Of a stretch of DNA of 64,000 nt, positions 4,105-39,604 are shown in pieces (the stretch's first letter is position 1; each line of letters opens with the position of its first letter). Both the position numbers and the translations under genes were made by a program. Source of the stretch: Gammaproteobacteria bacterium (GTDB lineage Bacteria > Pseudomonadota > Gammaproteobacteria > SZUA-140); the NCBI GenBank assembly GCA_026982565.1, contig JALSGV010000042.1:11956-75955 (forward strand), in the 5' to 3' direction. Under the pieces are notes generated by a model that was not told the origin of the DNA, did not search any database, and was given only the letters and a program-made list of their open reading frames with translations.

Positions 4105-6042
4105 GTGGCGATGAAAAAATCGGATTTTGACAAGCCATCCAGGGATCCCGAGATCGACATCAACAAGCCCAGTGACTTCAAGCCCGGGCAGGGCTTCTGG
4201 CAGAGGCCCGGCCCGGTGATGTGGATCTACCTGGTTTTCATCCTCATCTCTCTCTATACCTGGCGCGGAGTCGAACACAGCCAGCAGATGGAGATTCCCT
4301 ATAGTGAATTTCTGCAATTGGTGGACAAGGGCCAGGTGACCGAGGCGGTCGTCACCGAGCGCACCATCACCGGCTCCCTGAAAGAGACCGATCCCCAGAC
4401 CGGCCAGCCGCGCCATTTCATTACCGTGCCTTTGTGGAACAATGAGCTGGCCAAGGAGCTGGAGGAGAAGGGGGTCAAGTATACCGTCCGCCAGAGCAAC
4501 AACTGGTTGAGTAATTTCATCTTCGGCTGGGTGCTGCCCTTTGGCCTGTTGTTCCTGTTGTGGGGTTGGCTGGGCCGGCGCATGGGGACGGCAGGCAAGG
4601 GTTTTCTCAACATCGGTAACCGCATCCGCATTCATGCCGAGGGCGATGTCAAGGTGACCTTCAAGGATGTGGCGGGCGCCGAAGAGGCCAAGACGGAACT
4701 CAGCGAGACCATTGCCTTTCTCAAGGACCCCTCCGTCATCCAGAAACTCGGGGGACATGCCCCCAAGGGGGTTCTGCTGGCGGGCCCGCCCGGTACGGGC
4801 AAGACCTTGCTGGCCCGCGCCGTGGCGGGAGAGGCCCACGTTCCCTTCTTCAATATCAGCGGTTCCGAATTCATAGAGATGTTCGTGGGGGTGGGCGCGG
4901 CCCGGGTGCGCGAGCTGTTCGAGCAGGCGCGGCAGAAGGCGCCCTGCATCGTCTTCATCGATGAGCTGGATGCCATTGGCGCCGCGCGCGGTATCTCACC
5001 GATGGGCGGCGGCGGGCATGACGAACGTGAGCAGACCCTCAACCAGCTGCTCACGGAGATGGATGGTTTCGACCCCTCCGTGGGCGTGGTGGTGATGGCC
5101 GCCACCAACCGCCCGGAGATCCTCGACAAGGCCCTGTTGCGCGCCGGGCGCTTCGACCGTCAAATCATCGTGGACAAGCCTGATCTGGAGGCGCGTGTCG
5201 CCATTCTCGGTATTCACACCCGCAATATGAAGCTGGCCGACGATGTCGACCTGCAAGTGGTGGCGCAGCGCACGCCCGGTTTCGTGGGCGCCGATCTGGC
5301 CAATATCGCCAATGAAGCGGCCATACTCGCCGTACGCCACGGGCATGACGCCGTCACCATGGCCGATTTCGAGGCGGCCATCGATCGCGTGATCGCCGGC
5401 CCCGAAAAGAAAAACCGCGCACTCAATGCCGCCGAGAAGCGCCGCGTGGCCTTCCATGAGTCGGGTCATACCCTGGTGGCCGAGAGCGTGCCTACGGGTG
5501 AGCCGGTGCACAAGGTGTCCATCATCCCGCGCGGCGTGGCGGCCCTGGGTTATACCCTGCAACTGCCTGTGGAAGAGAAGTTCCTGTCGACGGAGCATGA
5601 ACTGAAGGACCAGATCGCCATTCTCCTCGGAGGGCGGGTGGCCGAGGAGATCGTATTTGGCGATGTCTCCAGCGGTGCGGCCAACGACCTGGAGCGGGCC
5701 ACGGAGATCGCCCGCGGCATGGTGACCCAGCTGGGCATGAGCGGCAAGCTGGGTCCCCTCACCTGGGGTCGCCGGCAGCAATTGCGCTTTCTGGAGCAGA
5801 CGGCGGAGGAACGCAACTACAGCGAGGAGACCGCGCGCCTCATCGATGCCGAGGTGCGCGCCCTGGTTGAGGAAGGACGGCAGCGCGCGATGGGGATTCT
5901 CAGCGCCAACCGCAAGGTGCTGGATGCCCTGGCGGCCACCCTGGAGGAGAAGGAAGTGCTCAGCGGCGAAGAGGTCGAGGCTGTCATGGAAAAGCAGGGC
6001 GGCCTGGTGAAGATCCACGAAAAGCAGGCGGGTAAGGCATGA
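4105..6042 (+). CDS. ftsH: ATP-dependent zinc metalloprotease FtsH (paralog-type context)
   Basis: Two N-terminal TM helices, Walker A GPPGTGKT, Walker B IVFIDELD, zinc motif HESGH. Confidence 0.9.
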
Positions 6043-6776
6043 AGCCGGATTCGCCCTTCTTCGGGGAGGCGCTGCGCTGCCTCCAGGGCTCGCCACTTTT
6101 CGCCAACATGGACGACGCGCTGTTGATGGACATGATCGGGCGCTGCCGCCGCGAGACCTGGAAGCGCCGCCGCCTGCTGCCCATGGAGGAGACCTGGCAA
6201 CGCTTCCATATCCTGCTGTCGGGAAGGGTGCGCCTGAGCCGCAGCAATGTGGAGACGGGGCGGGTCATCACCCTGTTCCTGCTGGGCCCCGGCGATGCCT
6301 TCTGCATGTTCAGCCTCCTGGACGGCAAGCCCCATGATGTCATGCTGGAGACTCTGGACGATGTGTCGCTGCTCAGTTTGCCCATGGCGGAGGCCCGCCA
6401 GTGGGTACATGATCACCCCGAGTTCAACCGCGCCCTGTTGCCCTACCTGGGTGAACAGATGGCCAGCCTCGCCGGCCTGGCGGCGGATCTCGCCCTCCAT
6501 GATACGGAGGCGCGCCTGGCGCGTCTCATCCTGCGTCACGTGGATAGCACCGCAGCGGAAGCGCACATCACCCCCAGGCTGATCAATGACCTCTCCCACG
6601 AGTCCCTGGCCGACATGATCGGCAGTGTGCGGGTGGTGGTCAACCGCCAGCTCCAGCATTGGAAGCAGGAAGGCATCGTCGATGCACACCGGGGGCACCT
6701 GGAGGTGGAGGCCCTGCAGGAACTGGCGAAACGGGCCGCCGAGCTGCCCAGCAATCCACCCTCGACGGCGCATTGA
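6039..6776 (+). CDS. Crp/Fnr family transcriptional regulator
   Basis: 245 aa with an N-terminal cNMP-binding-like fold and a C-terminal HTH (SHESLADMIGSVRVVVNRQLQHW). The ATG overlaps the ftsH stop (ATGA at 6039-6042). Confidence 0.7.
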   Translation: MKPDSPFFGEALRCLQGSPLFANMDDALLMDMIGRCRRETWKRRRLLPMEETWQRFHILLSGRVRLSRSNVETGRVITLFLLGPGDAFCMFSLLDGKPHDVMLETLDDVSLLSLPMAEARQWVHDHPEFNRALLPYLGEQMASLAGLAADLALHDTEARLARLILRHVDSTAAEAHITPRLINDLSHESLADMIGSVRVVVNRQLQHWKQEGIVDAHRGHLEVEALQELAKRAAELPSNPPSTAH

Positions 6777-10019: not shown

Positions 10020-11108
10020 TCAGTCCCCTGAGGTCTTGTAGTCGATGCTGATGCGTTCGGCTGCGACGGGACGGAACAGCTTGTCGGCAAAGGCGACGTG
10101 GGCGGGATGTTCCCGGTAGCTGTCGATGACGTCGGGGTGGACGAAGGTGACCAGCCAGCAATACTGGTAGGCCGCGTTTTCCTTGACTGCCTTTCCGGTG
10201 ACCACCCTGCGCACACCGGGAATGCCGCTCAGGATGCGCCGTCCTTCCGCCATCATGCCCTCTGTCGCATGTTCGCCGATACCGCTGACATTGTAGATGA
10301 TCACGTGCTCCACGGGCTTCCAGCTGGCGCAATGGGTGAGGGCCTCCGAGGCGCGGCCCTCGCTGCCGCAGCGCCGCAGGCAGCGTTCCGCGGTTTCAAC
10401 GATGGCGCCACGCATGCCGTACAGTTGGATATGGTCTTCATCACAAGCGTTGCGCAGCCATGCGCCGGCGCCTTCCATCAGTGTCGTGTCAAAATCAACC
10501 CTGGCGATGCCCGCGGCAATGAACCGGCTCAGTAATGCATCCTCTGTTATGTTGTCGCCAGGCATGGACAGGATCACTCCTTCGGGAACATCGCCGGGCA
10601 ACCCGGCTCCGGGATCCGTATCGTCATTCACGGCCGGCAGGGAGAGGAAGTCGATGCCGGCCTGGAGCGCTTGGGCGATTGCCTCCCTGTCTTCGGGAGA
10701 GGCGATGCCGGCCGTTACGGGAACGCCGCAGCCATGGGCCATCTCGGCAATGCGCAACGCGAGTTGAAAGTCGCTGGGTGTCCAGCCTGTTGGTGCTGCG
10801 ACGCCAATGCTGTTACAGCCCAGGTTGATACCTTGAATGGCTTCAGACAGGTTGGTGCAACCCTCGAGGTGAATGGCTGTGGGGACTGAAGCGCGGCGGG
10901 CGGCGGTTTCCGCCGCCGCCGCCATTGCCTCCAGGTGTGATTCATTGTCAGGAGAGGCCGGCAGGCTCAGGATCACTGGCGCCCTGGCATTTTCGGCGGC
11001 TTCCAGGACACCCTCCAGAAATTCGAGACTGCGCACCGTGCAGGCGCCCACGGCATAGCCATGGTGCCGGGCGTGGTCGAGCATGTCTCGCACATGGACG
11101 AGCGCCAT
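10020..11108 (-). CDS. class II aldolase-like (zinc ligands missing) fused to a Dabb stress-responsive alpha/beta-barrel domain
   Basis: The N-terminus aligns by eye to GatY/FbaA-type class II aldolases (MALVHVRDMLDHARHHGYAVGA...APVILSL). It has AIHLEGC where HLDH is expected. The C-terminal ~95 aa (VEHVIIYNV...YREHPAHVAF) look like a Dabb domain. Confidence 0.7.
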   Translation of the reverse strand: MALVHVRDMLDHARHHGYAVGACTVRSLEFLEGVLEAAENARAPVILSLPASPDNESHLEAMAAAAETAARRASVPTAIHLEGCTNLSEAIQGINLGCNSIGVAAPTGWTPSDFQLALRIAEMAHGCGVPVTAGIASPEDREAIAQALQAGIDFLSLPAVNDDTDPGAGLPGDVPEGVILSMPGDNITEDALLSRFIAAGIARVDFDTTLMEGAGAWLRNACDEDHIQLYGMRGAIVETAERCLRRCGSEGRASEALTHCASWKPVEHVIIYNVSGIGEHATEGMMAEGRRILSGIPGVRRVVTGKAVKENAAYQYCWLVTFVHPDVIDSYREHPAHVAFADKLFRPVAAERISIDYKTSGD

Positions 11109-12447: not shown

Positions 12448-13011
12448 TCATTTGGCGAAGATGGCCTTTGCCGTCATAAAGATATTGGCGAAGAATATCC
12501 AGAAGCCGATGCCCATCACGGTGGCCACCACGACGATGATAGGCGTGTATATTTTGTGTACTTCTTCCATCCCAGAGATATCATCTTGCAGCAGCAGATT
12601 GCCCTCGATGAACCCGAATACCATCAATGTGGTGTAGAAACCACTGATGCCCAGGGTGGTCCACCAGAACGTGTGTTGCACCAGTCTCTGAGAGAACAGC
12701 GGTGTTCCGGAAATACGCGGCAGAAGATAATAGGTGACCGCCATGCATAACAGCACCACACCACCCACGACATTGATATGGGCGTGGGCCAGGGGGTCGA
12801 TCATATGTCCTGGTCCACCATAGGGGCTGCCGATGGAATCCAGCCAGGCGCGTATCGGCGGTTGTATCTGGAGTACGCCATGGACTGTTCCGATGAAAAA
12901 CGAGGTGACGGAAACCAGTAGGAATTTGATGAGGCCGCGTTCAGCGGCTGTAGCTTCCGGTACGGTATGTGGTGAAATTTCTACTTCTTCATCTGCGCGC
13001 ATGCAGTTCAT
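12448..13011 (-). CDS. membrane protein resembling the N-terminal helices of heme-copper oxidase subunit I (CcoN/NorB-like), truncated form
   Basis: 187 aa, ~5 TM. The segment HAHINVVGGVVLLCMAVTYYLLPR...FWWTTLG resembles the helix II-IV region of cbb3/NOR subunit I. Assignment is by eye only. Confidence 0.45.
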   Translation of the reverse strand: MNCMRADEEVEISPHTVPEATAAERGLIKFLLVSVTSFFIGTVHGVLQIQPPIRAWLDSIGSPYGGPGHMIDPLAHAHINVVGGVVLLCMAVTYYLLPRISGTPLFSQRLVQHTFWWTTLGISGFYTTLMVFGFIEGNLLLQDDISGMEEVHKIYTPIIVVVATVMGIGFWIFFANIFMTAKAIFAK

Positions 13012-13430
13012 GTCTCCTCTATTTCTGCTGCGGGTTCTATACTACCCTGTACCAGCAGGGCGCCGGTGAAGATCACGAACGCCCTGATGATCAGAATGGC
13101 CTTGCCCTGGGCGTGGTGATCCTGCCTGATGCGGCCTTTGCCTTCTCCGCGTAGCAGCGCACGCCCCGCCTGGATTTGCACAGCATACAATACGAAGAGC
13201 GATACAACCGCCCCCAAGTGCATCCAAACGCCAAAGGTGAGTATATCCTCTTGCACGATGAGGCGCTCGTACCAGTCGTGTGTTGCGACCAGATAGAATG
13301 GGAACAGCAGGTCACTTATCATGATGAAGATCATCACAGGCACATGAAATCTTCTCACGCGCGCATGGTAGAAGGCAGCCACCATGAGCAGATACGTCGC
13401 CGTGGCATAGAGTACCGTTCCCGCTATCAT
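13008..13430 (-). CDS. 4-TM membrane protein (possibly DUF420-like)
   Basis: 140 aa and hydrophobic. Its stop overlaps the downstream start (ATGA). Confidence 0.45.
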   Translation of the reverse strand: MIAGTVLYATATYLLMVAAFYHARVRRFHVPVMIFIMISDLLFPFYLVATHDWYERLIVQEDILTFGVWMHLGAVVSLFVLYAVQIQAGRALLRGEGKGRIRQDHHAQGKAILIIRAFVIFTGALLVQGSIEPAAEIEET

Positions 13431-26642: not shown

Positions 26643-26783
26643 ATTGGCAAGGGTATAAATCCTGATTCCCGCAAACCATGGCAGGCGGGCCCGCCATGCT
26701 TTGCCTGGAACAGATGTGACGTTTTTCATTCCCGTTTTAATGTATTACAATTTGTGTAGTTATTAAGGGTGAGGTTTAATGAA

Positions 26784-27968
26784 ATGATTGATGGTATTTT
26801 GGGGTTGTCCGGGTGGGAGAAGGTCGTCGCGGTGCTCGTGATGACCCATATCACCATTATCAGTGTCACGGTGTTTCTGCACCGCCATCAGGCCCATCGC
26901 GCGCTTGATCTGCATCCAGTGCTCAGCCATTTTTTCCGCTTCTGGCTGTGGTTGACCACCGGCATTCAGACCAAGGCCTGGGTTGCCATCCACAGAAAGC
27001 ACCATGCCAAGTGCGAAACGGAGGATGACCCCCACAGTCCCCAGGTACTGGGCATCAAGAAAGTACTGTGGGAAGGAGCGGAGCTCTACCGGGAAGCGTC
27101 CAGGAACGAGAAGACTCTGGAACAATATGGACGCGGCACACCCGCTGACTGGCTGGAACGTCATATCTATGACGCGCACAGTTATTGCGGCCTGGTTCTG
27201 ATGTTCATCGTGGATATCCTCTTGTTTGGCATTGCCGGTATCTCCGTATGGGCCGTGCAGATGCTGTGGATACCCCTGTTTGCTGCAGGTGTCATCAATG
27301 GCATTGGGCATTGGTGGGGCTACCGAAACTATGAAGTGCCCGATGCCTCGACCAATATCGTTCCCTGGGGGATTCTCATCGGTGGGGAGGAGCTGCACAA
27401 CAACCATCATACCTTTGCCACCTCGGCCAAATTGTCCGCCAAGTGGTGGGAGCTGGATATCGGTTGGATGTACATCCGCCTGTTTCAGGCATTGGGATTG
27501 GCCTCTGTCAACAAGCGCCTGACCCGGCCACGCATCGATCCGGCCAAGACCACTGTGGATATGGATACGGTGCGCGCTGTGGTCAATCACCGCTTTCAGG
27601 TCATGGCCCATTATTGCCGCGACGTATTGCACCAGGTGCACCGCGACGAGTTGAGCAAGGCGGATGATGCCTCTGACCGTGAACGCCTGAAAAAAGTGCG
27701 CCGCCTGCTGGTCAGGGAGGCATCTCTTATCGACGAATCCGCCCAGGTAAAGCTCCATGCGGTGCTGAGTGACAACGATCGCCTGGAGACCGTCTATCGC
27801 TTCAAGCTGGAGCTGCAGGAGTTGTGGAAGCGCTCTGCTGAATCCAATGAAAAAATGCTCCAGGCCTTGCAGGAGTGGTGTCGGCGGGCTGAAGCCAGCG
27901 GCATTCGTACCCTGGAGGAGTTTGCGCAGGTTCTGCAGGGTTATTCCCTGCGTACAGCAGCATCCTGA
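26784..27968 (+). CDS. membrane fatty-acid (acyl-CoA/acyl-lipid delta-9-type) desaturase with ~100-aa helical C-terminal extension
   Basis: Histidine boxes HRHQAH, HRKHH and HNNHH. The ORF is listed from GTG 26769; ATG 26784 has the better SD spacing. Confidence 0.85.
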   Translation: MIDGILGLSGWEKVVAVLVMTHITIISVTVFLHRHQAHRALDLHPVLSHFFRFWLWLTTGIQTKAWVAIHRKHHAKCETEDDPHSPQVLGIKKVLWEGAELYREASRNEKTLEQYGRGTPADWLERHIYDAHSYCGLVLMFIVDILLFGIAGISVWAVQMLWIPLFAAGVINGIGHWWGYRNYEVPDASTNIVPWGILIGGEELHNNHHTFATSAKLSAKWWELDIGWMYIRLFQALGLASVNKRLTRPRIDPAKTTVDMDTVRAVVNHRFQVMAHYCRDVLHQVHRDELSKADDASDRERLKKVRRLLVREASLIDESAQVKLHAVLSDNDRLETVYRFKLELQELWKRSAESNEKMLQALQEWCRRAEASGIRTLEEFAQVLQGYSLRTAAS

Positions 27969-28079
27969 AACTGTCACAAACCCCTCTGTTACACCTTGTT
28001 GTTATTGTGTGATTATGTATGTCATTGTTAAATAGTGATAATTTCTTACTAAATCACTTAGTTTTTGTGATGAAAAGGC

Positions 28080-28108
28080 TTGACCTTAATCCTTCCATTT
28101 TGTAATGT
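28080..28108 (+). promoter_or_regulatory. sigma-70-type promoter of small ORF 1
   Basis: TTGACC (28080-28085), 17 nt, TAATGT (28103-28108). The -35 and its flanks are conserved in copy 2. Confidence 0.5.
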
Positions 28109-28175
28109 TTTAGATGTAGTCCAAAACTGTGACTTGATCAAAACAACACATATTGCTAAATACAGGAGGGTAAAC

Positions 28176-28289
28176 ATGAGCAATGACAACTGGATTGATA
28201 TCAGTAAAACGGACACAATCATCTGCGTAGGCAGCCTGGGTACGTGGGCAGTGCTGATGTATCTCGCATCGACAGTGCTGGCCCTCTAG
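28176..28289 (+). CDS. 37-aa hydrophobic peptide (MSNDNWIDISKTDTIICVGSLGTWAVLMYLASTVLAL)
   Basis: SD AGGAGGG lies 5 nt upstream. It has its own promoter and terminator, and a paralog lies 591 bp downstream. The listed 69-aa ORF from TTG 28080 starts in the -35 box. Confidence 0.5.
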   Translation: MSNDNWIDISKTDTIICVGSLGTWAVLMYLASTVLAL

Positions 28290-28340
28290 ACTGAAGGATC
28301 AGTCAGCTGCTTCGTGTGTTGAAGCAGGGTATCCAACATA

Positions 28341-28370
28341 AAAAGGCCAGATGACTCATCTGGCCTTTTT
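28341..28370 (+). terminator. intrinsic terminator after small ORF 1
   Basis: AAAA-GGCCAGATGA-C-TCATCTGGCC-TTTTT. Confidence 0.8.
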
Positions 28371-28423
28371 GGTAATGCACATTACAGGGTTGCGCAGCAG
28401 CAATGGGGGGTGCGCTTCACGGT

Positions 28424-28550
28424 ATCCAATGAAAAAATGCTCCGTGCATTGCAGAAATGATGTTGTTGGGAAAAGTCCAGGGGTATCCCCGCTCCGAAGG
28501 AAATGTCTCGCGTCCTATATGGTTATTCCCAATGGACGGCAGCATCCTGA
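28424..28550 (+). pseudogene. decayed relic of the desaturase 3' end
   Basis: Aligns without gaps to 27842-27968. In the ancestral frame it reads SNEKMLRALQK-stop, then GYS..TAAS-stop. The middle part is roughly half identical. Confidence 0.55.
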
Positions 28551-28662
28551 AATTGTCGCATGCCCCTTTATAACCACTTAATTTCTATAAGGTATTTGGT
28601 ATCTTATTGTTAAATATTATAAATTCCTGACTAAATTCCTTAGTTATTGTGATGAAAAAGGC

Positions 28663-28691
28663 TTGACCTTAAGCCCTTGCTTTCGTAGTGT
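28663..28691 (+). promoter_or_regulatory. sigma-70-type promoter of small ORF 2
   Basis: TTGACC (28663-28668), 17 nt, TAGTGT (28686-28691). Confidence 0.45.
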
Positions 28692-28766
28692 CTAAGGCGT
28701 AGTCCAAAACGTGTACTCGTCAGAACGACATTTCTTGCCATTAAATATAAGAGGGGGAGGGTAATC

Positions 28767-28877
28767 ATGAGCAACAACTGGATCGATATCAGTAAAACGG
28801 ACGGAATCATCTGCATCGTAAGCCTGGGTGTGTGGGCGGTACTGTGGTATCTGGCTGCGACGGCCCTGGCTTTGTAG
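28767..28877 (+). CDS. 36-aa hydrophobic peptide (MSNNWIDISKTDGIICIVSLGVWAVLWYLAATALAL)
   Basis: SD GGGGGAGGG. 29/36 residues are identical to small ORF 1 by hand alignment. Not in the ORF track (under 60 aa). Confidence 0.5.
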   Translation: MSNNWIDISKTDGIICIVSLGVWAVLWYLAATALAL

Positions 28878-28922
28878 GGAATGAGACAGTCACTGCTCGC
28901 AGTTCGAAGCAGGGCACCCAAT

Positions 28923-28955
28923 AAAAAAGGCCAGATGAAATATCTGGCCTTTTTT
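28923..28955. terminator. bidirectional intrinsic terminator (small ORF 2 / rpmG)
   Basis: AAAAAA-GGCCAGAT-GAAAT-ATCTGGCC-TTTTTT. Confidence 0.8.
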
Positions 28956-28983
28956 CGGTTTGGCGTTTTGGGTTCGCGCGAAA

Positions 28984-29139
28984 CTATTTGATCTTGGCCT
29001 CCTTATAGAGGACATGCTTGCGTACGACTGGATCGAATTTCTTGATTTCCATCTTTCCCGGCATGGTGCGCTTGTTTTTGTCGGTGGTATAGAAATGTCC
29101 GGTTCCGGCGCTCGATACTAATCTGATTTTTTCACGCAT
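28984..29139 (-). CDS. rpmG: 50S ribosomal protein L33
   Basis: Hand translation: [51 protein letters not shown] (51 aa). Confidence 0.9.
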
Positions 29140-29150
29140 GGTCAGGCTCC

Positions 29151-29387
29151 TTAGACTTTTTCGCCACGCTTGCGCATGTCGGCCAGCACCTGGTCGATGC
29201 CCAGCTTGTCGATGATGCGCATGCCCTTGGAGCTGACGCGCAGGCGCACCCAGCGGTTTTCGCTCTCCACCCAGAAGCGGTGGGTGTTGAGGTTGGGCAG
29301 AAAGCGCCGTTTGGTTTTGTTGTTGGCATGGGAGACGTTATTGCCGACCATGGGCCGCTTACCCGTTACCTGACATACCCTAGACAT
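29151..29387 (-). CDS. rpmB: 50S ribosomal protein L28
   Basis: [33 protein letters not shown]... (78 aa), within the listed ORF 29151..29567. Confidence 0.95.
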
Positions 29388-29475
29388 CTTGACTATCCTC
29401 CAGCAGGACTCCACAAAGCAGGCTTTTATACCAGAATCGGGTTCTGCTGGCAAGTGATCCCGCGCTTTCGGTCGT

Positions 29476-36016: not shown

Positions 36017-36217
36017 GGCTGGGTGATCCTGTGATTGAAAAGGCCCCCATTCTAGCGATTCGCGGATGGGAGGGGAATATTGTCAAGGGAATAAAGGCGC
36101 AAGGGCGCCAGGTACACAAATGACCCCGGGGGGAGTGTGTGAGGGGGTGTGCTTCATGTGTACCCGATGCCCTTGCGAAGGGGGGGAGTGGATGTGTGGA
36201 AATCATTTCCCATCATT

Positions 36218-36790
36218 TCAGCCGCGCAGGAATGCCTCTTCTTCCTCGCTCAAGGCCGGCGTGGCTTCCCTGAAGGGGTTGATGGTCGTGGTATCCAGGG
36301 CGGTATCACCGAGTTCACCCTCTTTCTGGCTTTCCAGGAAGAGGCCGATTTCCCCGTTGACCTCCAGCGCCCTTACCAGGAAATATGTCAGGGATGGGCA
36401 GATGCGCTTGAGATAGGCGCCTCCCGGCGGCGGCGTCGGCGCAAGGATCATGAGACGGATGTTTTCCATCTGGAAGCCGCCGCGGTTGTTGCCATTTTCC
36501 TTGAACAGGGCGGGATAGAGCCGGTAGAACCAGGCGCGGTTGCCGCTCAGGCCTTCCATGACGTTGAGCCCGTTCATCAGGGCGCGGCCGCCGTCACGGC
36601 TGTCGCAGCACAGCAGGGCCGGCTTGCCGGTCGCGTCCAGGGCCAGGATGTGATTGCCCTCATAGGGCAGATCGTTGCTGACGACCGTATGAGGCTTTCC
36701 CAGAAACTGGTCCAGGGACTCGTAGACGAGTTCGAACAATACCTGGTTGGATGACAAAGGGATCTGTCTGATATGCATGTGCCGGGTCAT
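36218..36790 (-). CDS. 190-aa protein of unknown function, acidic C-terminal tail
   Basis: Start MTRHMHIRQIPL at 36790 overlaps the upstream stop (ATGA). GC3-rich codon usage. The listed 381-aa ORF (to 37363) carries an Arg-rich out-of-frame artefact as its N-terminal half. Confidence 0.55.
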   Translation of the reverse strand: MTRHMHIRQIPLSSNQVLFELVYESLDQFLGKPHTVVSNDLPYEGNHILALDATGKPALLCCDSRDGGRALMNGLNVMEGLSGNRAWFYRLYPALFKENGNNRGGFQMENIRLMILAPTPPPGGAYLKRICPSLTYFLVRALEVNGEIGLFLESQKEGELGDTALDTTTINPFREATPALSEEEEAFLRG

Positions 36791-37524
36791 GTTGGGGTCC
36801 TTTCCTCTGTGAGGGACTGTTGATAATCCTGCCAGTCCTGGATGATCATCCTGGCAATATGATGAATAGCGTCTGTCTGAAACCCGGCCTGGTCCTCCGT
36901 GGCGCCCCAGGACGGTGGCGGCAATGGCAGGGCGCCGTAGCTGGTGACGTGCAGGCTGAGAAACCGTTGCGCGGCAGTGGCCAGCTTGGTGTAGTGATAG
37001 CGCGCCGACCTGGACGAGGCAGCGCCGGTAATGGCGACTCCAATGGGCGCATGAAGGTCTCGTTCTGTCAGTGCCTTGAGGCGCGCATAGGCTTTGCGCA
37101 ATCCCTCGTGATTGGCCTGGACCAGCATCAGGCACTGCGCGCCGTCCGCCAGGGGGGATGCCTCCACGCAGGTGGTGGCGTACAGGAGATAGGGATAGGG
37201 CGGGCTGCCCCGCTCTTTCAGACCGTTGCGCAAGGTTGCGAATACCCTGCCTGATTCCATGTTTCTCTCCGCTGCGCCGTGCGCATCCCAGGGAACATGG
37301 AGAGAAACGCTGTTTGCAGTCGGCCCCGGCATGATGGCTACGCCTGGAGCGCCATGTCGGCAAAGCGCTTCCGCCAGCAAGGATAGCGGCAGGTGGGCTT
37401 CATGCCCGGGTGCATGGGACAGGATCAGGCTGACGACGGGGCAGGCGGGTGGCGCTGCTGACTCATCGTCATCACTGAGAAAGTGATGGCTGATCTGCGC
37501 CAGGCGCTCCCGGGCGCTGCCCAC
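36787..37524 (-). CDS. MinD/ParA-like fold protein lacking the Walker A P-loop (putative pseudo-ATPase)
   Basis: 245 aa, GTG start 13 nt after the ParA stop. VVSLILSHAPGHEAH sits where KGGxGKT would be. The later pattern (CLMLVQANHEGLRKAYARLKAL...IGVAITGA...RFLSLHVTSYGALP) mirrors MinD/FlhG strand-helix motifs. Confidence 0.5.
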   Translation of the reverse strand: MGSARERLAQISHHFLSDDDESAAPPACPVVSLILSHAPGHEAHLPLSLLAEALCRHGAPGVAIMPGPTANSVSLHVPWDAHGAAERNMESGRVFATLRNGLKERGSPPYPYLLYATTCVEASPLADGAQCLMLVQANHEGLRKAYARLKALTERDLHAPIGVAITGAASSRSARYHYTKLATAAQRFLSLHVTSYGALPLPPPSWGATEDQAGFQTDAIHHIARMIIQDWQDYQQSLTEERTPT

Positions 37525-37537
37525 CGGTGTCTCTTGT

Positions 37538-38734
37538 TCAGACAGTGGCCGGCACCTCGTTTTCCGTCACCTTCAGCAAGGAGTTGATCTCTCCAAACAG
37601 GTTGCTGATGCGGTTGGGGTTGTTGGGGTCCTCCTGCCACTTGCCGTCGATGATGAGGCGGTACTGATAGGTGCCGGGCTTGATCCTCATCGTCTTGACG
37701 ATAGCCTCGTGGTCGACGCGTGTTTCGACATTGTGGTCGGGTATCCAGTTGTTAAAATCACCGGCGATTTTCAGGTCTCTGGTGGGGATATCTGAAAATC
37801 TCAGTGTCACTGTGGTCAGGTCTTTATCACATTGGTCCCCGTCGTCACGGGAGACTCGTATGATACTGGGCTCCTGCATAAAGATCGCGGTCGCTTCATC
37901 CTCATCCTTGATGACCTGTACATGCAGTTCCCGCGTGATGTGCTCTTCCAGAAGGGCAAGATCACGGCTGAACTGCACAGTCGCTGTGCGGTGCATGATT
38001 TCATCCGCCAGGCGCTGGTAGTCGGCTGCTCCCAGGGTCTTGGGTGCATAGACAGTGATCGGTTTCCCCTGCCAGGCGGCTTCTTTCAGGCGGACGGTGT
38101 AGTGTATGCAGACTTTCAGGATCTCCTCTGCGAAGTGATCCTGTATCTCATGCAGGACATTGCGTGTGAAGCGTGTGCGATAGTCCACCATGGTGGGGAG
38201 TATGGCAAGGGGGATGTCCAGGTGGTATTTCTCCGCCACCAGGTTGACGGTTTCCTGCAGGCGCTCGATGCCATCCAGTGAAAACCGACTCATTTCGATG
38301 GGCACCAGCACCATGTCGGCGCAGCGCAGGGCATTGAAGGCCAGCAGGCTCAGCGCCGGCGGGCAGTCGATGATGATGTAGTCATAGTTGTTCTTGAGCG
38401 GCTCGAGGTGCATGTCCAGCTGCCGCTCGCGTTTCGCCAGGTCGGCGAGCAGGTGCTCGACGGCCGCCAGAGAGATCGTGGCGGGGACAAGGTCGACGCC
38501 TTCGGCGACATTGTTGAGAATCACTTCATCCAGTTCCATATCCTGGGTAAAGACCTCGTAGAGCCCTGCCACGTCCTCGCAACGCCGTCCCAGGCCCAGC
38601 GAGGCATGCCCCTGGGGGTCCATGTCGATGAGCAGGATGCGGTGTTGCATCTCCCCAAGACTTGCCGCCAGGTTGATCGCTGTCGTCGTCTTCCCGCAGC
38701 CGCCCTTCTGATTGGCAATCGCAATTACTGTCAT
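37538..38734 (-). CDS. ParA/MinD-family ATPase fused to a C-terminal CBM48 (AMPK-beta glycogen-binding-type) domain
   Basis: Deviant Walker A NQKGGCGKTTTAINLA, then LLIDMDPQG and IIIDCPP. The C-terminal ~85 aa read TVTLRF...LKIAGDFNNW...IKPGTYQYRLIIDGKWQEDPNNP. ATG 38734 is chosen because of SD AAGGAGGA; the ORF is listed from GTG 38818. Confidence 0.85.
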   Translation of the reverse strand: MTVIAIANQKGGCGKTTTAINLAASLGEMQHRILLIDMDPQGHASLGLGRRCEDVAGLYEVFTQDMELDEVILNNVAEGVDLVPATISLAAVEHLLADLAKRERQLDMHLEPLKNNYDYIIIDCPPALSLLAFNALRCADMVLVPIEMSRFSLDGIERLQETVNLVAEKYHLDIPLAILPTMVDYRTRFTRNVLHEIQDHFAEEILKVCIHYTVRLKEAAWQGKPITVYAPKTLGAADYQRLADEIMHRTATVQFSRDLALLEEHITRELHVQVIKDEDEATAIFMQEPSIIRVSRDDGDQCDKDLTTVTLRFSDIPTRDLKIAGDFNNWIPDHNVETRVDHEAIVKTMRIKPGTYQYRLIIDGKWQEDPNNPNRISNLFGEINSLLKVTENEVPATV

Positions 38735-38835
38735 ACCTGTGTTCCTCCTTTTGTCGAGCCTCCTGTTGAGGGAGTCTCTCTGCCCGAGATTTCCCGTCCC
38801 GAACTGCATGGGCGCCACTGTTCTTTCGCTATATG

Positions 38836-39303
38836 CTATATCCCTTGTTCATGGCATTGTGCTGGGTTTGCTTCCGGGAACAATTCCCCTTGGCCGCTTG
38901 CCAGGCCCTGCTGTTTCTGTTGTTGCGTCACTTCGCGTTGGAACTGTGCAATGGGCAGTATCCATTCCTGTCCTGTCAATGTTTCGAAGACGGCCCCTTC
39001 ATGAAAAACCAGGATGACATCGCCAGTGGCCAGCAGCGACAGCTCGGACAAGGGCTGCCGGAGATGGGGGAGGGTCCTGGTCAGGGCGGTGATGCTTTTG
39101 CGGAGTTTCTGCAGGGAAACACCGGCGTCGATGAGGCGTTTGGCGGTTTTGAGTGCGATGAGGTCGGGGAAGGTGTAGCGCGCATGGCCGCCGGGTGTCT
39201 GTTGCGAGGGGATAATCAGCCCGATCTTGCGCCAATAGGCAAGTTGGCGTTGGCTGACTCCCGTGATTTGAATAGCTTGCCGGCTTGTGAATACCGTTGC
39301 CAT
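38836..39303 (-). CDS. MerR-family HTH protein
   Basis: MATVFTSRQAIQITGVSQRQLAYWRKIGLIIPS...GHARYTFPDLIALKTAKRL is a MerR-type N-terminal HTH. The C-terminal ~80 aa are unassigned. Confidence 0.75.
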   Translation of the reverse strand: MATVFTSRQAIQITGVSQRQLAYWRKIGLIIPSQQTPGGHARYTFPDLIALKTAKRLIDAGVSLQKLRKSITALTRTLPHLRQPLSELSLLATGDVILVFHEGAVFETLTGQEWILPIAQFQREVTQQQKQQGLASGQGELFPEANPAQCHEQGI

Positions 39304-39604
39304 CAAATTGTTCCCGCCCTTCTGCGAGTGATAACACATAATTCTGGTAGGAAAAAGAAAAATGTCAAGGAAAAATGACAAAAAAACGAAAAATTGTCTA
39401 TGTCAGTATTATTTTTTCAGGATTATTCATAATATTTGATGCGGTCATGATGGTTTTTGCAAAGTAAGCCCATGCAAGAGCTTCAGGGCGGGAGTTTGTG
39501 GTGTCCATTCCGGAAACATTGCATTTTCAGCAATTACTGTTATAACTATGCACTTTCGCTATCTTGGAAAATGGGAATCAATAACAATTAGGGGGAGTTG
39601 TCAC

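Follow-up and report, generated by a model that had tools for sequence, protein, structure and literature searches.

A conserved four-gene chromosomal operon with a ParA-carbohydrate-binding module fusion may tie a stored sugar polymer to the chromosome

A conserved but uncharacterised operon of four genes, referred to as g1 to g4, was found in the window (the whole 64-kb stretch of DNA analysed) and may tie a stored sugar polymer to the chromosome. The reading we prefer, with a probability of roughly 40%, is that the module tethers alpha-glucan to the nucleoid and distributes it; the module itself is proposed to be chromosomal and self-regulated. The locus extends from 36218 to 39303, and its ORFs, like all features described below, lie on the minus strand. 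An earlier sequence-only reading had noted the linkage of the four genes on one strand as well as their spacing, and both were reproduced: 101 nt separate g1 and g2 (about 100 nt had been given), 13 nt separate g2 and g3, and g3 and g4 overlap by ATGA. The g1-g2 spacer (38735..38835) carries the ribosome-binding site AAGGAGG. No paper and no Pfam, NCBIfam or PADLOC entry describing the system was found, and a glycogen system is missing from reviews of ParA/MinD systems and organelle positioning. No characterised homolog was found, in line with the earlier statement that no ParA system is characterised for a glucan cargo.

Gene g2 (37538..38734; 398 aa plus stop codon) comprises a ParA domain, a linker and a carbohydrate-binding module (CBM). 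Judged by its sequence, the ATPase (residues 1-250; 37985..38734) is a complete ParA of the Soj type. It matched the Pfam families AAA_31 (E = 1.5e-54, 185 bits, cut-off 27) and CbiA (E = 4.8e-20, 72 bits, cut-off 25). All motifs of the canonical ParA/MinD ATPase called previously are in place, namely a deviant Walker A box with the signature lysine (NQKGGCGKTT, containing KGGCGKT), Walker A' (DMDPQG) and Walker B (IIIDCPP). Residues K10, K15, D37, D39, D123, R186 and R188 are invariant in 36 g2 homologs. The best matches among solved structures are chromosomal ParA/Soj proteins (8ray, 1.7e-54; 1wcv, 8.9e-43; 6iub, 1.2e-41; also 2bej), which align over residues 3-250 with E values between 1e-41 and 1e-54, whereas McdA (6non/6noo) matches far more weakly. 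Like Soj, g2 possesses all nucleotide-binding motifs, and in the alignment its R186 (motif TM.D.RT) falls on the arginine with which Soj binds DNA. Unlike Soj, it has no adjacent ParB/Spo0J, is located away from the origin, and carries an extra 150-aa linker plus CBM. With the CBM in the C-terminal position, no C-terminal amphipathic helix is evident.

The linker (residues ~251-307; 37814..37984) is poorly conserved, and its length ranges from 50 to ~320 aa among ParA-CBM homologs. It is basic with AKP repeats in homolog P0109 and acidic in homolog P0103; in one Nitrospirota-type ParA-CBM homolog the AKP repeats are histone-H1-like. This variability is counted in favour of the tethering reading.

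The C-terminal part of g2 (residues ~308-393; 37556..37813) had been read as an AMPK-beta/CBM48-type module, and it does score as such: AMPK1_CBM (PF16561) was matched with E = 7.9e-10 and 39.3 bits against a cut-off of 26.8, and the module aligns to CBM structures of AMPK beta1 and beta2 with E = 4e-9. ParA and PF16561 domains occur together in all 120 best g2 homologs. Residues W330, R359, W366 and N384 correspond to W100, K126, W133 and N150 of AMPK-beta1, for which a role in sugar binding is documented (PMC4032982). The first three are invariant in the 120 homologs, and N384 is present in 113 of them. The module thus shares with the AMPK beta-subunit the Pfam family, the stacking tryptophans and the asparagine, with lysine replaced by arginine. 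It differs in being bacterial, in lacking a kinase partner, in being a putative sugar binder by sequence, and in occurring either fused to ParA or as a separate protein of ~100 aa encoded within the operon. Plant CBM48 targeting proteins such as PTST represent a related case. The g2 CBM would accordingly bind alpha-glucan, and it is the sole basis for a putative cargo of the glycogen type. Neither the window nor any locus examined has a linked glg or other alpha-glucan gene, which counts against the tethering reading.

The first gene, g1 (38836..39303), encodes a MerR-type winged-helix DNA-binding protein of 155 aa. The MerR-type HTH recognised earlier was borne out by Pfam matches above the gathering scores to both MerR_1 (E = 1.4e-13, 51 bits, cut-off 21.6) and MerR (E = 1.6e-8, 34.6 bits, cut-off 28.2). 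On plain reading of the sequence, the C-terminal half consists mostly of hydrophobic stretches resembling beta-strands, and in a profile of 69 sequences both this beta-rich domain and a QGELFP tail are conserved. Profile and structure-database matches revealed no MerR effector domain in this half, which departs from the family pattern of a long coiled-coil dimer helix with an effector pocket. The nearest solved relative is CvkR/Alr3614 (7xn2, E = 1.5e-8), a MerR-type repressor of CAST systems which has a non-canonical C-terminal part and targets a short palindrome. The two proteins have the MerR-type winged helix and a non-canonical C-terminal domain in common, but sequence similarity is confined to the N-terminal domain (residues 4-81), and the operators are unlike in both sequence and position.

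Upstream of g1, a scan located a sigma-70-type promoter (TTGACA, 16 nt, CAGAAT; 10/12 matches; 39341..39368), the TTGACA box of which keeps its position across the aligned loci. Adjoining the -35 box on its upstream side is an operator-like inverted repeat, GACAA-N12-TTGTC (39377..39398), and a third GACA half-site lies within the -35 box. This architecture was common to 12 of 12 loci aligned by eye. The operator was present upstream of g1 at 32 of 55 loci and at none of 14 loci with a solo ParA-CBM gene; in the 64-kb window it occurs once, at the g1 site, with 0.13 matches expected. MerR-activated promoters typically have a spacer of 19-20 nt, as opposed to 16 nt here with the operator upstream of the -35 box. 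Operators at the promoter are likewise conserved in autoregulated par operons. From these data g1 looks like an autoregulator, and its conserved operator, a candidate target, is counted in favour of the tethering reading.

Gene g3 (36787..37524) encodes an alpha/beta protein of 245 aa starting with GTG. The automatic call (157 aa) left out part of the protein, and a start at the GTG at 37524 gives back its N-terminal motif RERLAQISHHFLS; this motif is kept across the aligned g3 family, and the family alignment placed the N-terminal motif RERLAQISHHFLSD at 37471-37512. No Pfam or NCBIfam family matched g3, and its own family numbers 126 representatives in a set of 1.84 billion proteins. A MinD/ParA fold devoid of Walker A had been proposed for this protein. 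The latter part holds, as Walker A is missing from all 124 family members checked, and g3 of the window lacks Walker A' and Walker B as well, the ParA-aligned positions bearing neither DxD nor the Walker B aspartate. The fold itself depends on an AF2 model of low confidence (pLDDT 53), in which the order of strands and helices is that of ParA, and on a marginal profile match: hhalign of g3 with ParA/MinD gave scores of 22.6-23.5 (probability 2.3%, P ~0.02), above 30 of 30 shuffled controls as well as the reversed and the unrelated-family ones, and aligned the equivalent helix-strand following the P-loop. Foldseek searches with the same pLDDT 53 model placed FlhG/FleN at ranks 2-7 (probability 0.9-1.0, TM 0.25-0.31), FleN-FleQ complexes being among the matches. 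Together these data weakly suggest that g3 is a candidate degenerate ParA/MinD-like protein.

The properties of g1 and g3 bear on the main alternative, which we regard as somewhat unlikely, namely that the module is a sensor or switch for glucan status. The AMPK-like CBM would report glycogen or oligosaccharide and, together with g3 and g4, control g1 in the way FleN controls FleQ, ParA adding sequestration on the nucleoid; the output would be transcription of the operon itself and perhaps of a wider regulon. The FleN-FleQ pair, in which a MinD-like ATPase restrains a transcription factor, offers a possible parallel for action of g3 or ParA on g1, but g3 has no nucleotide-binding motifs and g1 is unrelated to FleQ. 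A role of this kind would suit the constant leading position of g1 in the operon, its identity of 58-85% across loci (the best conservation among the proteins, at least equal to that of ParA), its non-canonical C-terminal domain and conserved operator, and the rank of FlhG/FleN among the g3 matches. It would also suit the loci described below in which ParA is dispensed with. Yet plain autoregulation would lead one to expect just what was seen, a single operator in 64 kb at the promoter of the operon itself; for self-regulation, four proteins including an intact ATPase are much machinery; and the similarity of g3 to FleN stems from the low-confidence model.

For g4 (36218..36790; 190 aa) the earlier reading had found no recognisable domain. 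This agrees with the lack of any Pfam or NCBIfam match, but not with the AF2 model (pLDDT 81) and an alignment of 33 homologs, on the basis of which the protein was confidently modelled as a catalytically degenerate, NucS-like member of the PD-(D/E)xK fold. Foldseek ranked the NucS/EndoMS structures 5gkj, 5gke and 2vld at the top (E = 4e-4 to 1e-3); next came other proteins of the PD-(D/E)xK fold, namely XisH, Card1, SfsA, Cap4 and HamA. With NucS, g4 shares the alpha-beta-beta-beta-alpha-beta core of the PD-(D/E)xK fold and a C-terminus in which a flexible linker precedes a short conserved tail; in NucS this tail serves to bind the sliding clamp. In g4 the C-terminal motif, FRxx...LSxEEExYF (36221-36277), follows a disordered linker. 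Unlike NucS, g4 is ~40-50 residues shorter (190 aa versus chains of 226-239 aa), with a TM score of ~0.4 and 14-16% identity, and the catalytic D...(D/E)xK is not conserved in the 33 homologs: D52 is D or N, and the position equivalent to the lysine is occupied by R, Q, T, A or C. Conservation in this region is restricted to D63, D66 and the GGRA segment, with an invariant DGGRA helix cap. In the window g3 and g4 are translationally coupled through the ATGA, and on contig JAJDNP010000153 they are fused into one ORF of 462 aa. Coupling and fusion are counted in favour of the tethering reading.

The ancestry of these proteins could also point to a role directed at DNA, such as chromosome organisation, positioning of a locus or repair, although we consider this quite improbable. 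In such a system g1 would mark a DNA site at which ParA acts, g4 would bind DNA, and the CBM-like beta-sandwich would be a module for protein interaction. Three of the four proteins are indeed of DNA-related descent (MerR winged helix, Soj-type ParA, NucS-like fold), MerR-like proteins of the RacA type anchor chromosomes and RacA is a weak match to g1, and the upstream site is reminiscent of a type-Ib centromere/operator arrangement. However, the invariance of the sugar-contact residues in 120 homologs would be difficult to account for if there were no glycan ligand, the catalytic motif of g4 is not conserved, and the upstream site is one short operator and no repeat array. Furthermore, no ParB-family gene was detected in the window or at the loci examined.

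Whether the four genes co-occur in related genomes had been put forward as a check, and they do. Among 80 species-level genomes with loci fetched by the CBM alone, 45 have the four-gene order, which was also found at all nine loci retrieved via g4, the MerR gene being missing from one. Since the order recurs to this extent, the arrangement is far beyond chance. Proteins of syntenic loci are 25-85% identical, and flanking genes vary while the four-gene order stays, a further point in favour of the tethering reading. The carriers found are MAGs or SAGs, mainly of uncultured sulfur-oxidising bacteria. In a Thiogranum/Thiohalobacter-type clade, 13 of 32 loci have lost the ParA domain and kept g1, the CBM, g3 and g4. 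One of these 13 lies on a closed chromosome, and it is the only copy of the CBM subtype there; g1 and the CBM are adjacent in all of them. The core of the module therefore consists of the MerR-type protein, the CBM48 and the two new proteins, ParA being optional, and ATP-driven positioning is not the indispensable activity. Conversely, ParA-CBM stands alone, with the other three genes missing, at ~14 of 80 loci. These solo loci are counted against the tethering reading, as is the finding that the N-terminal motif of g3 is identical in operons with and without ParA.

It is very improbable that the locus serves anti-phage defence or the ordinary partition of a plasmid or chromosome. The ParA domain of g2 is closest to chromosomal Soj/ParA, and the combination of a nuclease-like fold with an ATPase and an HTH protein bears a superficial likeness to defence operons. 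However, g4 had no match in 72,556 plasmids, and the CBM had only two weak ones there, on large (1.2-1.3 Mb) Pseudoalteromonas replicons. The window represents core chromosome (radC-coaBC-dut-algC-argB...pyrE, ftsYEX-rpoH, bioBFCD), and the only PADLOC matches were generic ones to an HTH (mad1) and, weakly, to P-loop models, with nothing for g3 and g4. The promoter is conserved and, in hundreds of species, the proteins are under strong purifying selection, in contrast to patchy defence islands. A ParABS partition system was rejected for the missing ParB, the near-absence from plasmids and the single operator found in the 64-kb window in place of a parS-type repeat array.

Of the claim that the operon tethers or distributes granules, the complete ParA, the CBM residues and the synteny stood, while the optional ParA and the glycogen genes not being adjacent speak against it. 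We infer the binding of glucan and of DNA, every contact among the proteins and the part that the module plays in the cell as follows. An ATP-bound ParA dimer would bind nucleoid DNA non-specifically, and the CBM, hanging from the Soj-type ParA by a flexible linker here and in most carriers, would hold glycogen-like alpha-glucan particles. In this way the polymer would be distributed along the chromosome and passed on with it, and would not coalesce at the poles. Such a tether would have a plausible benefit because in E. coli glycogen undergoes phase separation at the poles and pushes the nucleoid aside (PMC11042326). The P-loop-less g3, possibly derived from ParA/MinD, and its catalytically degenerate NucS-like partner g4 may act as a pair that tunes ATP turnover or provides a second contact; that g3 stimulates ParA and g4 binds DNA are guesses. 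Binding of g1 to the GACAA-N12-TTGTC operator would autoregulate the operon. In the usual ParA scheme the cargo carries an activator of the ATPase; a ParA covalently bound to its cargo departs from this scheme, and this counts against the tethering reading.

ParA-family ATPases encoded apart from parB are known from McdA-McdB and from PpfA, ParC, MipZ and PomZ (PMC10241942, PMC11407121). As with McdA and the orphan ParA/MinD proteins, small lineage-specific partner genes adjoin g2 and the nucleoid is the presumed surface. Unlike these systems, g2 itself bears a putative cargo-binding domain, and ParA is lost from many carriers of the module while the rest persists. In contrast to McdAB, moreover, a MerR-type gene leads the operon, and g3 and g4 are unrelated to McdB. 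A carboxysome McdAB system was rejected, as g3 and g4 match no family and the neighbours are variable housekeeping genes. Closer in proposed function are PhaF, PhaM and AlgP, in which AKP-type repeats attach PHB and polyP granules to the nucleoid (PMC13052382); histone-like AKP repeats also occur in some ParA-CBM homologs. Together with PhaH these proteins are bifunctional, with a storage polymer at one end and non-specific DNA binding at the other, as is proposed here; they differ in having no ATPase (PMC13052382) and no sequence relationship to the module, of which the polymer would be glucan. In lineages without ParA the same core might act as a passive tether of the PhaF/PhaM kind.

Downstream of g4, an inverted repeat with 21-nt arms (36098..36177) lies between g4 and the pyrE promoter, and a scan placed a terminator-like hairpin at 36096-36109; the inverted repeat possibly marks the end of the operon.

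The operon consists of four closely spaced genes on the minus strand, in agreement with the sequence-only reading: a MerR-type gene (g1; 38836-39303; 155 aa), a gene for a ParA protein with a carbohydrate-binding module (g2, ParA-CBM; 37538-38734; 398 aa), and two further genes, g3 (36787-37524; 245 aa) and g4 (36218-36790). The spacings given in that reading were recovered from the sequence, with 101 nt between g1 and g2 including an AAGGAGG ribosome-binding site, 13 nt between g2 and g3, and an ATGA overlap of g3 and g4. The MerR-type helix-turn-helix of g1 was matched by MerR_1 (E = 1.4e-13) and MerR, both above gathering scores. The g2 product matched AAA_31 (1.5e-54) and CbiA and contains all three motifs that had marked it as a canonical ParA (KGGCGKT, DMDPQG, IIIDCPP); its C-terminal AMPK-beta/CBM48-type module (CBM) matched AMPK1_CBM in Pfam with 39.3 bits at a cut-off of 26.8. 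Neither g3 nor g4 matched any family profile in Pfam or NCBIfam. The automatic gene call for g3 was 157 aa long; a start at the GTG codon at 37524 regains RERLAQISHHFLS, the best-conserved feature among g3 homologs, and the 245-aa reading is therefore taken as correct.

Chromosomal ParA/Soj proteins were the best solved matches of the ParA part (8ray, 1.7e-54; T. thermophilus Soj, 8.9e-43; H. pylori Soj, 1.2e-41), whereas McdA, MinD and FleN scored far lower. Both Walker A lysines, the DxD motif, the Walker B aspartate and R186/R188 were invariant in 36 ParA homologs. R186 aligns to the arginine of the Soj TM.D.RT motif, on which DNA binding by B. subtilis Soj depends. The CBM aligned with structures of the AMPK beta1/beta2 CBMs (E = 4e-9). 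According to the structure alignment and rat beta1 numbering, W330, R359, W366 and N384 are the equivalents of W100, K126, W133 and N150, which are critical for carbohydrate binding (PMC4032982). Among 120 homologs W330, R359 and W366 were invariant, and N384 was present in 113. A role directed at DNA only, with a 'CBM' that binds no glycan, appears improbable. ParA and CBM are joined by an unconserved linker, whose length varies between about 50 and about 320 aa. Long proteins with a low-complexity linker of 200-320 aa are the ParA-CBM homologs P0109 (666 aa) and P0103 (534 aa) and those of the Nitrospirota-type loci L034, L036, L045 and L068; the linker of P0109 has basic, histone-H1-like AKP/AKTA repeats, and that of P0103 is acidic and rich in D, E, A and P.

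ParA/MinD ATPases are the main known bacterial means of positioning large cargos. To our knowledge, every characterised case relies on a separate adaptor and none handles carbohydrate; we also know of no nucleoid tether for glycogen, which among bacterial carbon stores is the most widespread, unlike for PHB and polyphosphate. The literature searched, including ParA/MinD reviews and a 2025 review of organelle positioning, links no ParA to glycogen, a CBM or a MerR partner and describes neither a ParA-CBM fusion nor the four-gene operon nor the g3 and g4 families. In databases, homologs are named only 'AAA family ATPase', 'chromosome partitioning protein' or 'hypothetical protein', and the operon is outside ParABS, McdAB and any defined subsystem. 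The closest functional precedent is provided by PhaF, PhaM, PhaH and AlgP rather than by any classic ParA system. These proteins contact PHB or polyphosphate at one end and DNA at the other; according to the review concerned, which is silent on glycogen, no ATP-driven layer is known so far for storage granules (PMC13052382). Untethered glycogen in E. coli phase-separates at the poles, displaces the nucleoid and skews division (PMC11042326). Based on the domain facts, the storage-granule tethers and the polar glycogen of E. coli, our preferred reading, with a probability of roughly 0.4, is a system that tethers alpha-glucan to the nucleoid and distributes it. Within such a tether, ParA would contribute ATP-switchable DNA binding; glycogen or alpha-glucan is the proposed, unproven cargo, and all protein-protein contacts in the operon are ones that we infer. 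A ParA with a built-in, predicted glycogen-binding module in many species-level genomes of chemolithoautotrophs (at least 533 CBM-related stretches) would open a directly testable route to the placement and inheritance of cellular glycogen.

The g3 protein evolves fast, with four matches in a word-indexed search and about 30% identity between loci. Its family comprised 126 representatives (E ≤ 1e-3) among 1.84 billion proteins, and Pfam searches with 50 homologs returned only noise. The AF2 model showed the strand/helix order of ParA, and among the Foldseek matches FlhG and FleN took ranks 2-7, with TM values of 0.25-0.31 despite high probabilities. As only four sequences were available for the alignment, the model is poor (pLDDT 53), and these matches are hints only. 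Comparison with a ParA profile in hhalign gave a probability of 2.3% (P about 0.02), the matched stretch being precisely the helix and strand located after the P-loop. A greedy alignment of g3 and ParA was collinear across the entire fold. The g3-ParA score (22.6-23.5) exceeded those of all 30 column-shuffled controls (maximum 21.2), of reversed controls (12-13) and of unrelated families (10-16). Of the earlier description of g3 as a MinD/ParA fold devoid of Walker A, the missing P-loop was upheld (0 of 124 members checked), and a P-loop-less ParA/MinD-like fold is plausible, not established.

At least 33 homologs of g4 were found in a word-indexed search. The statement that g4 has no recognisable domain holds for family profiles but not for structure: the AF2 model built with a homolog alignment was confident (pLDDT 81) and adopts a NucS-like PD-(D/E)xK fold. 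Foldseek ranked NucS/EndoMS first (E = 4e-4 to 1e-3, TM about 0.4), followed by XisH, Card1, SfsA, Cap4 and HamA, all of which are likewise PD-(D/E)xK proteins. The catalytic pattern is not conserved in the g4 alignment, where residue 52 can be D or N, and R, Q, T, A or C takes the place of the lysine. A motif at the N-terminus of a helix, D-x-x-D-G-G-R-A, hardly varies, and a C-terminal tail, F-R-x-x...L-S-x-E-E-E-x-Y-F (36221-36277), is conserved after a disordered linker. We take g4 to be a putative protein of nuclease fold that lacks catalytic activity and carries a docking tail. On contig JAJDNP010000153.1 (loci L009/L012/L023), g3 and g4 form a single ORF of 462 aa (about 5185-6573 in L009), with no MerR gene upstream; this natural fusion suggests that g3 and g4 function as a complex.

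The winged helix-turn-helix of g1 was closest to that of CvkR (7xn2, E = 1.5e-8), with a match confined to residues 4-81. CvkR, a repressor of the MerR type, is atypical in its C-terminal half (PMC9938897). In g1, strong conservation extends over both the C-terminal half, which has conserved hydrophobic stretches, and the QGELFP tail. In g1 (38836-38905) as in g4 the conserved tail follows a low-complexity linker and is docking-peptide-like; QGELF loosely resembles a beta-clamp-binding pentapeptide, and beta-clamp binding by the g1 or the g4 tail would be speculative. A promoter, TTGACA-16-CAGAAT, is located at 39341-39368, with the inverted repeat GACAA-N12-TTGTC directly upstream (39377-39398). 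This arrangement, with 7-8 nt between the palindrome and CTTGACA, preceded g1 in each of 12 loci compared by eye, and no second copy of the palindrome occurs in the 64-kb window (0.13 matches expected). In relaxed form it was correctly placed in 32 of 55 g1-containing loci, as opposed to 0 of 14 loci with ParA-CBM alone. Since the palindrome travels with g1, this protein would most simply be an autoregulator acting there, with a promoter/operator geometry that differs from the classic long-spacer type of MerR.

Taken as a whole, the operon had its closest relative in the Gammaproteobacteria MAG WGFB01 (85-87% protein identity for g1, g2 and g4; 53% for g3). Searches via g4 led to nine species-level genomes, all of which have the order ParA-CBM, g3, g4; g1 is in front in eight of them, the exception being L009. 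Three further metagenomic contigs with differing flanks showed the same layout. A search with the CBM returned at least 533 related stretches, the best 80 of which were classified with HMMs. Co-occurrence of the four genes proposed as one system was evident: the full layout was present in 45 of these 80 loci, and several others, interrupted by contig ends, were compatible with it. ParA-CBM stood alone in about 14 loci, and in 6-8 loci g1, a stand-alone CBM of about 100 aa, g3 and g4 occurred without ParA. Carriers among the best 80 were mostly Gammaproteobacteria MAGs (Thiogranum, Thiohalobacter, Sulfuricaulis, Acidiferrobacteraceae, Sulfurifustaceae, Ectothiorhodospiraceae, Chromatiaceae), together with Nitrospirota and single MAGs of Myxococcota, Burkholderiales and Bacteroidota. 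The full-length Thiohalobacter ParA-CBM as query detected the module in a Spirochaetaceae MAG, its other matches being mostly generic ParA. MAGs or SAGs account for every carrier detected. Loci with ParA-CBM alone (L021, L024, L035, L037, L044, L046-L048, L051, L062, L063, L066, L070 and L083; Sulfuricaulis, Acidiferrobacteraceae and others) had no g1, g3, g4 or operator within 5 kb and no conserved neighbour.

In Thiohalobacter, the stand-alone CBM and the C-terminal end of the fused protein are almost identical, including the linker segment TEDMTMKE(H/Y)AEQ, and the stand-alone gene starts inside the ParA-CBM linker of sister genomes; thus, the ParA-coding part was cleanly deleted. An exact-pattern scan for this CBM subtype gave a complete listing of 45 sites: (i) 19 were ParA-fused; (ii) 13 were ParA-less (L177, L178, L183, L190, L194, L198, L199, L202, L205, L211, L216, L218, L219); (iii) one was incomplete and unclassifiable; (iv) 12 were unrelated stand-alone CBM ORFs in other phyla. 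No second copy of the subtype was present in 12 of the 13 ParA-less assemblies, including the closed chromosome CP070738.1 (L190), and one MAG holds both forms. In ParA-less operons, g3 and g4 scored as in ParA-containing ones, with an identical g3 N-terminal motif. This frequent loss of ParA while g1, CBM, g3 and g4 remain is the main argument against the ParA-centred wording of the sequence-only reading. It is also the main support for a rival explanation, by analogy with AMPK and FleN-FleQ, in which the CBM would sense glucan status and, together with g3 and g4, control g1; we regard this as rather unlikely. In the favoured tether and distribution system, ParA-less operons would be passive versions of the tether, and the natural ParA-plus and ParA-minus operons offer a ready comparison of active positioning with passive tethering. 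Tentatively, the operon might even encode the first dedicated organiser of a polysaccharide store in bacteria. There, a ParA with its own CBM, a pair formed by a ParA-derived pseudo-ATPase and a dead NucS-like protein, and a MerR anchor/repressor would set number, spacing and inheritance of glycogen particles, with a passive tether where ParA is missing. Two new protein families, g3 (126 representatives) and g4 (at least 33), would gain context. The remaining probability belongs to some other function.

Short stand-alone AMPK-type CBM ORFs outside the operon (L180, L188, L189, L191, L192, L196, L197, L200, L201, L207, L212, L214) occur in MAGs of Syntrophorhabdus, Verrucomicrobiota, Planctomycetota and Latescibacterota and carry the signature G-x-Y-E-Y-R...D-G-x-W-Q.

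Clustering of flanking ORFs in the 80 loci revealed clade-specific housekeeping genes (xth and pyrE, or hrpA, cytochrome c4, DsrE-like, ferritin-like and macro-domain genes) and none related to glycogen. The flanks are conserved only within subclades, and the module is therefore self-contained. The window represents core chromosome of a gammaproteobacterium (about 60% G+C). Upstream of the operon are ftsH, ppsA, an H+-pyrophosphatase gene and the block radC-coaBC-dut-algC-argB-TauE-pyrE, and downstream are two porin genes, an exonuclease-III-like gene, ggt, coaD, ftsYEX-rpoH, bioBFCD and zapD. No glg gene was among the annotated ORFs, which cover most of the window apart from nine ORFs of 112-241 aa outside the scan, and no mobile-element signature surrounds the operon. 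An ordinary partition or defence system is very unlikely: PADLOC found no defence system, and plasmid partition was rejected on plasmid searches. In keeping with the sequence-only reading, no homolog with an unrelated characterised role is described in the literature searched.

Rfam and tRNA scans detected no RNA element in the operon, and the window had no Rfam match. ARAGORN reported a 'tRNA-???' with a two-base anticodon at 6392-6487 (minus strand) within a Crp-like gene (6039-6776), which is very likely a false positive. Between g4 and the pyrE promoter (TTGACA-17-TAGAAT), an inverted repeat with 21-nt arms and a GC-rich hairpin with a T-run (36020-36180, minus strand) could serve as operon terminator or pyrE attenuator. 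A single ORF at 26769-27968 (plus strand) joins the N-terminal part of a fatty-acid desaturase to the C-terminal part of an ISL3 transposase; the sequence behind it has few ORFs and low G+C (0.51; 28000-29470), and the region is probably an IS insertion or remnant. At 12448-13430 (minus strand), in a patch of low G+C (0.52), a 187-aa ORF whose match to cytochrome oxidase subunit I is confined to positions 309-413, and which may be a gene remnant, adjoins a 140-aa ORF of no assigned function. An ORF of 362 aa at 10020-11108 (minus strand) combines the N-terminal half of a class-II fructose-bisphosphate aldolase with a Dabb domain (stress-responsive A/B barrel), an unusual architecture.
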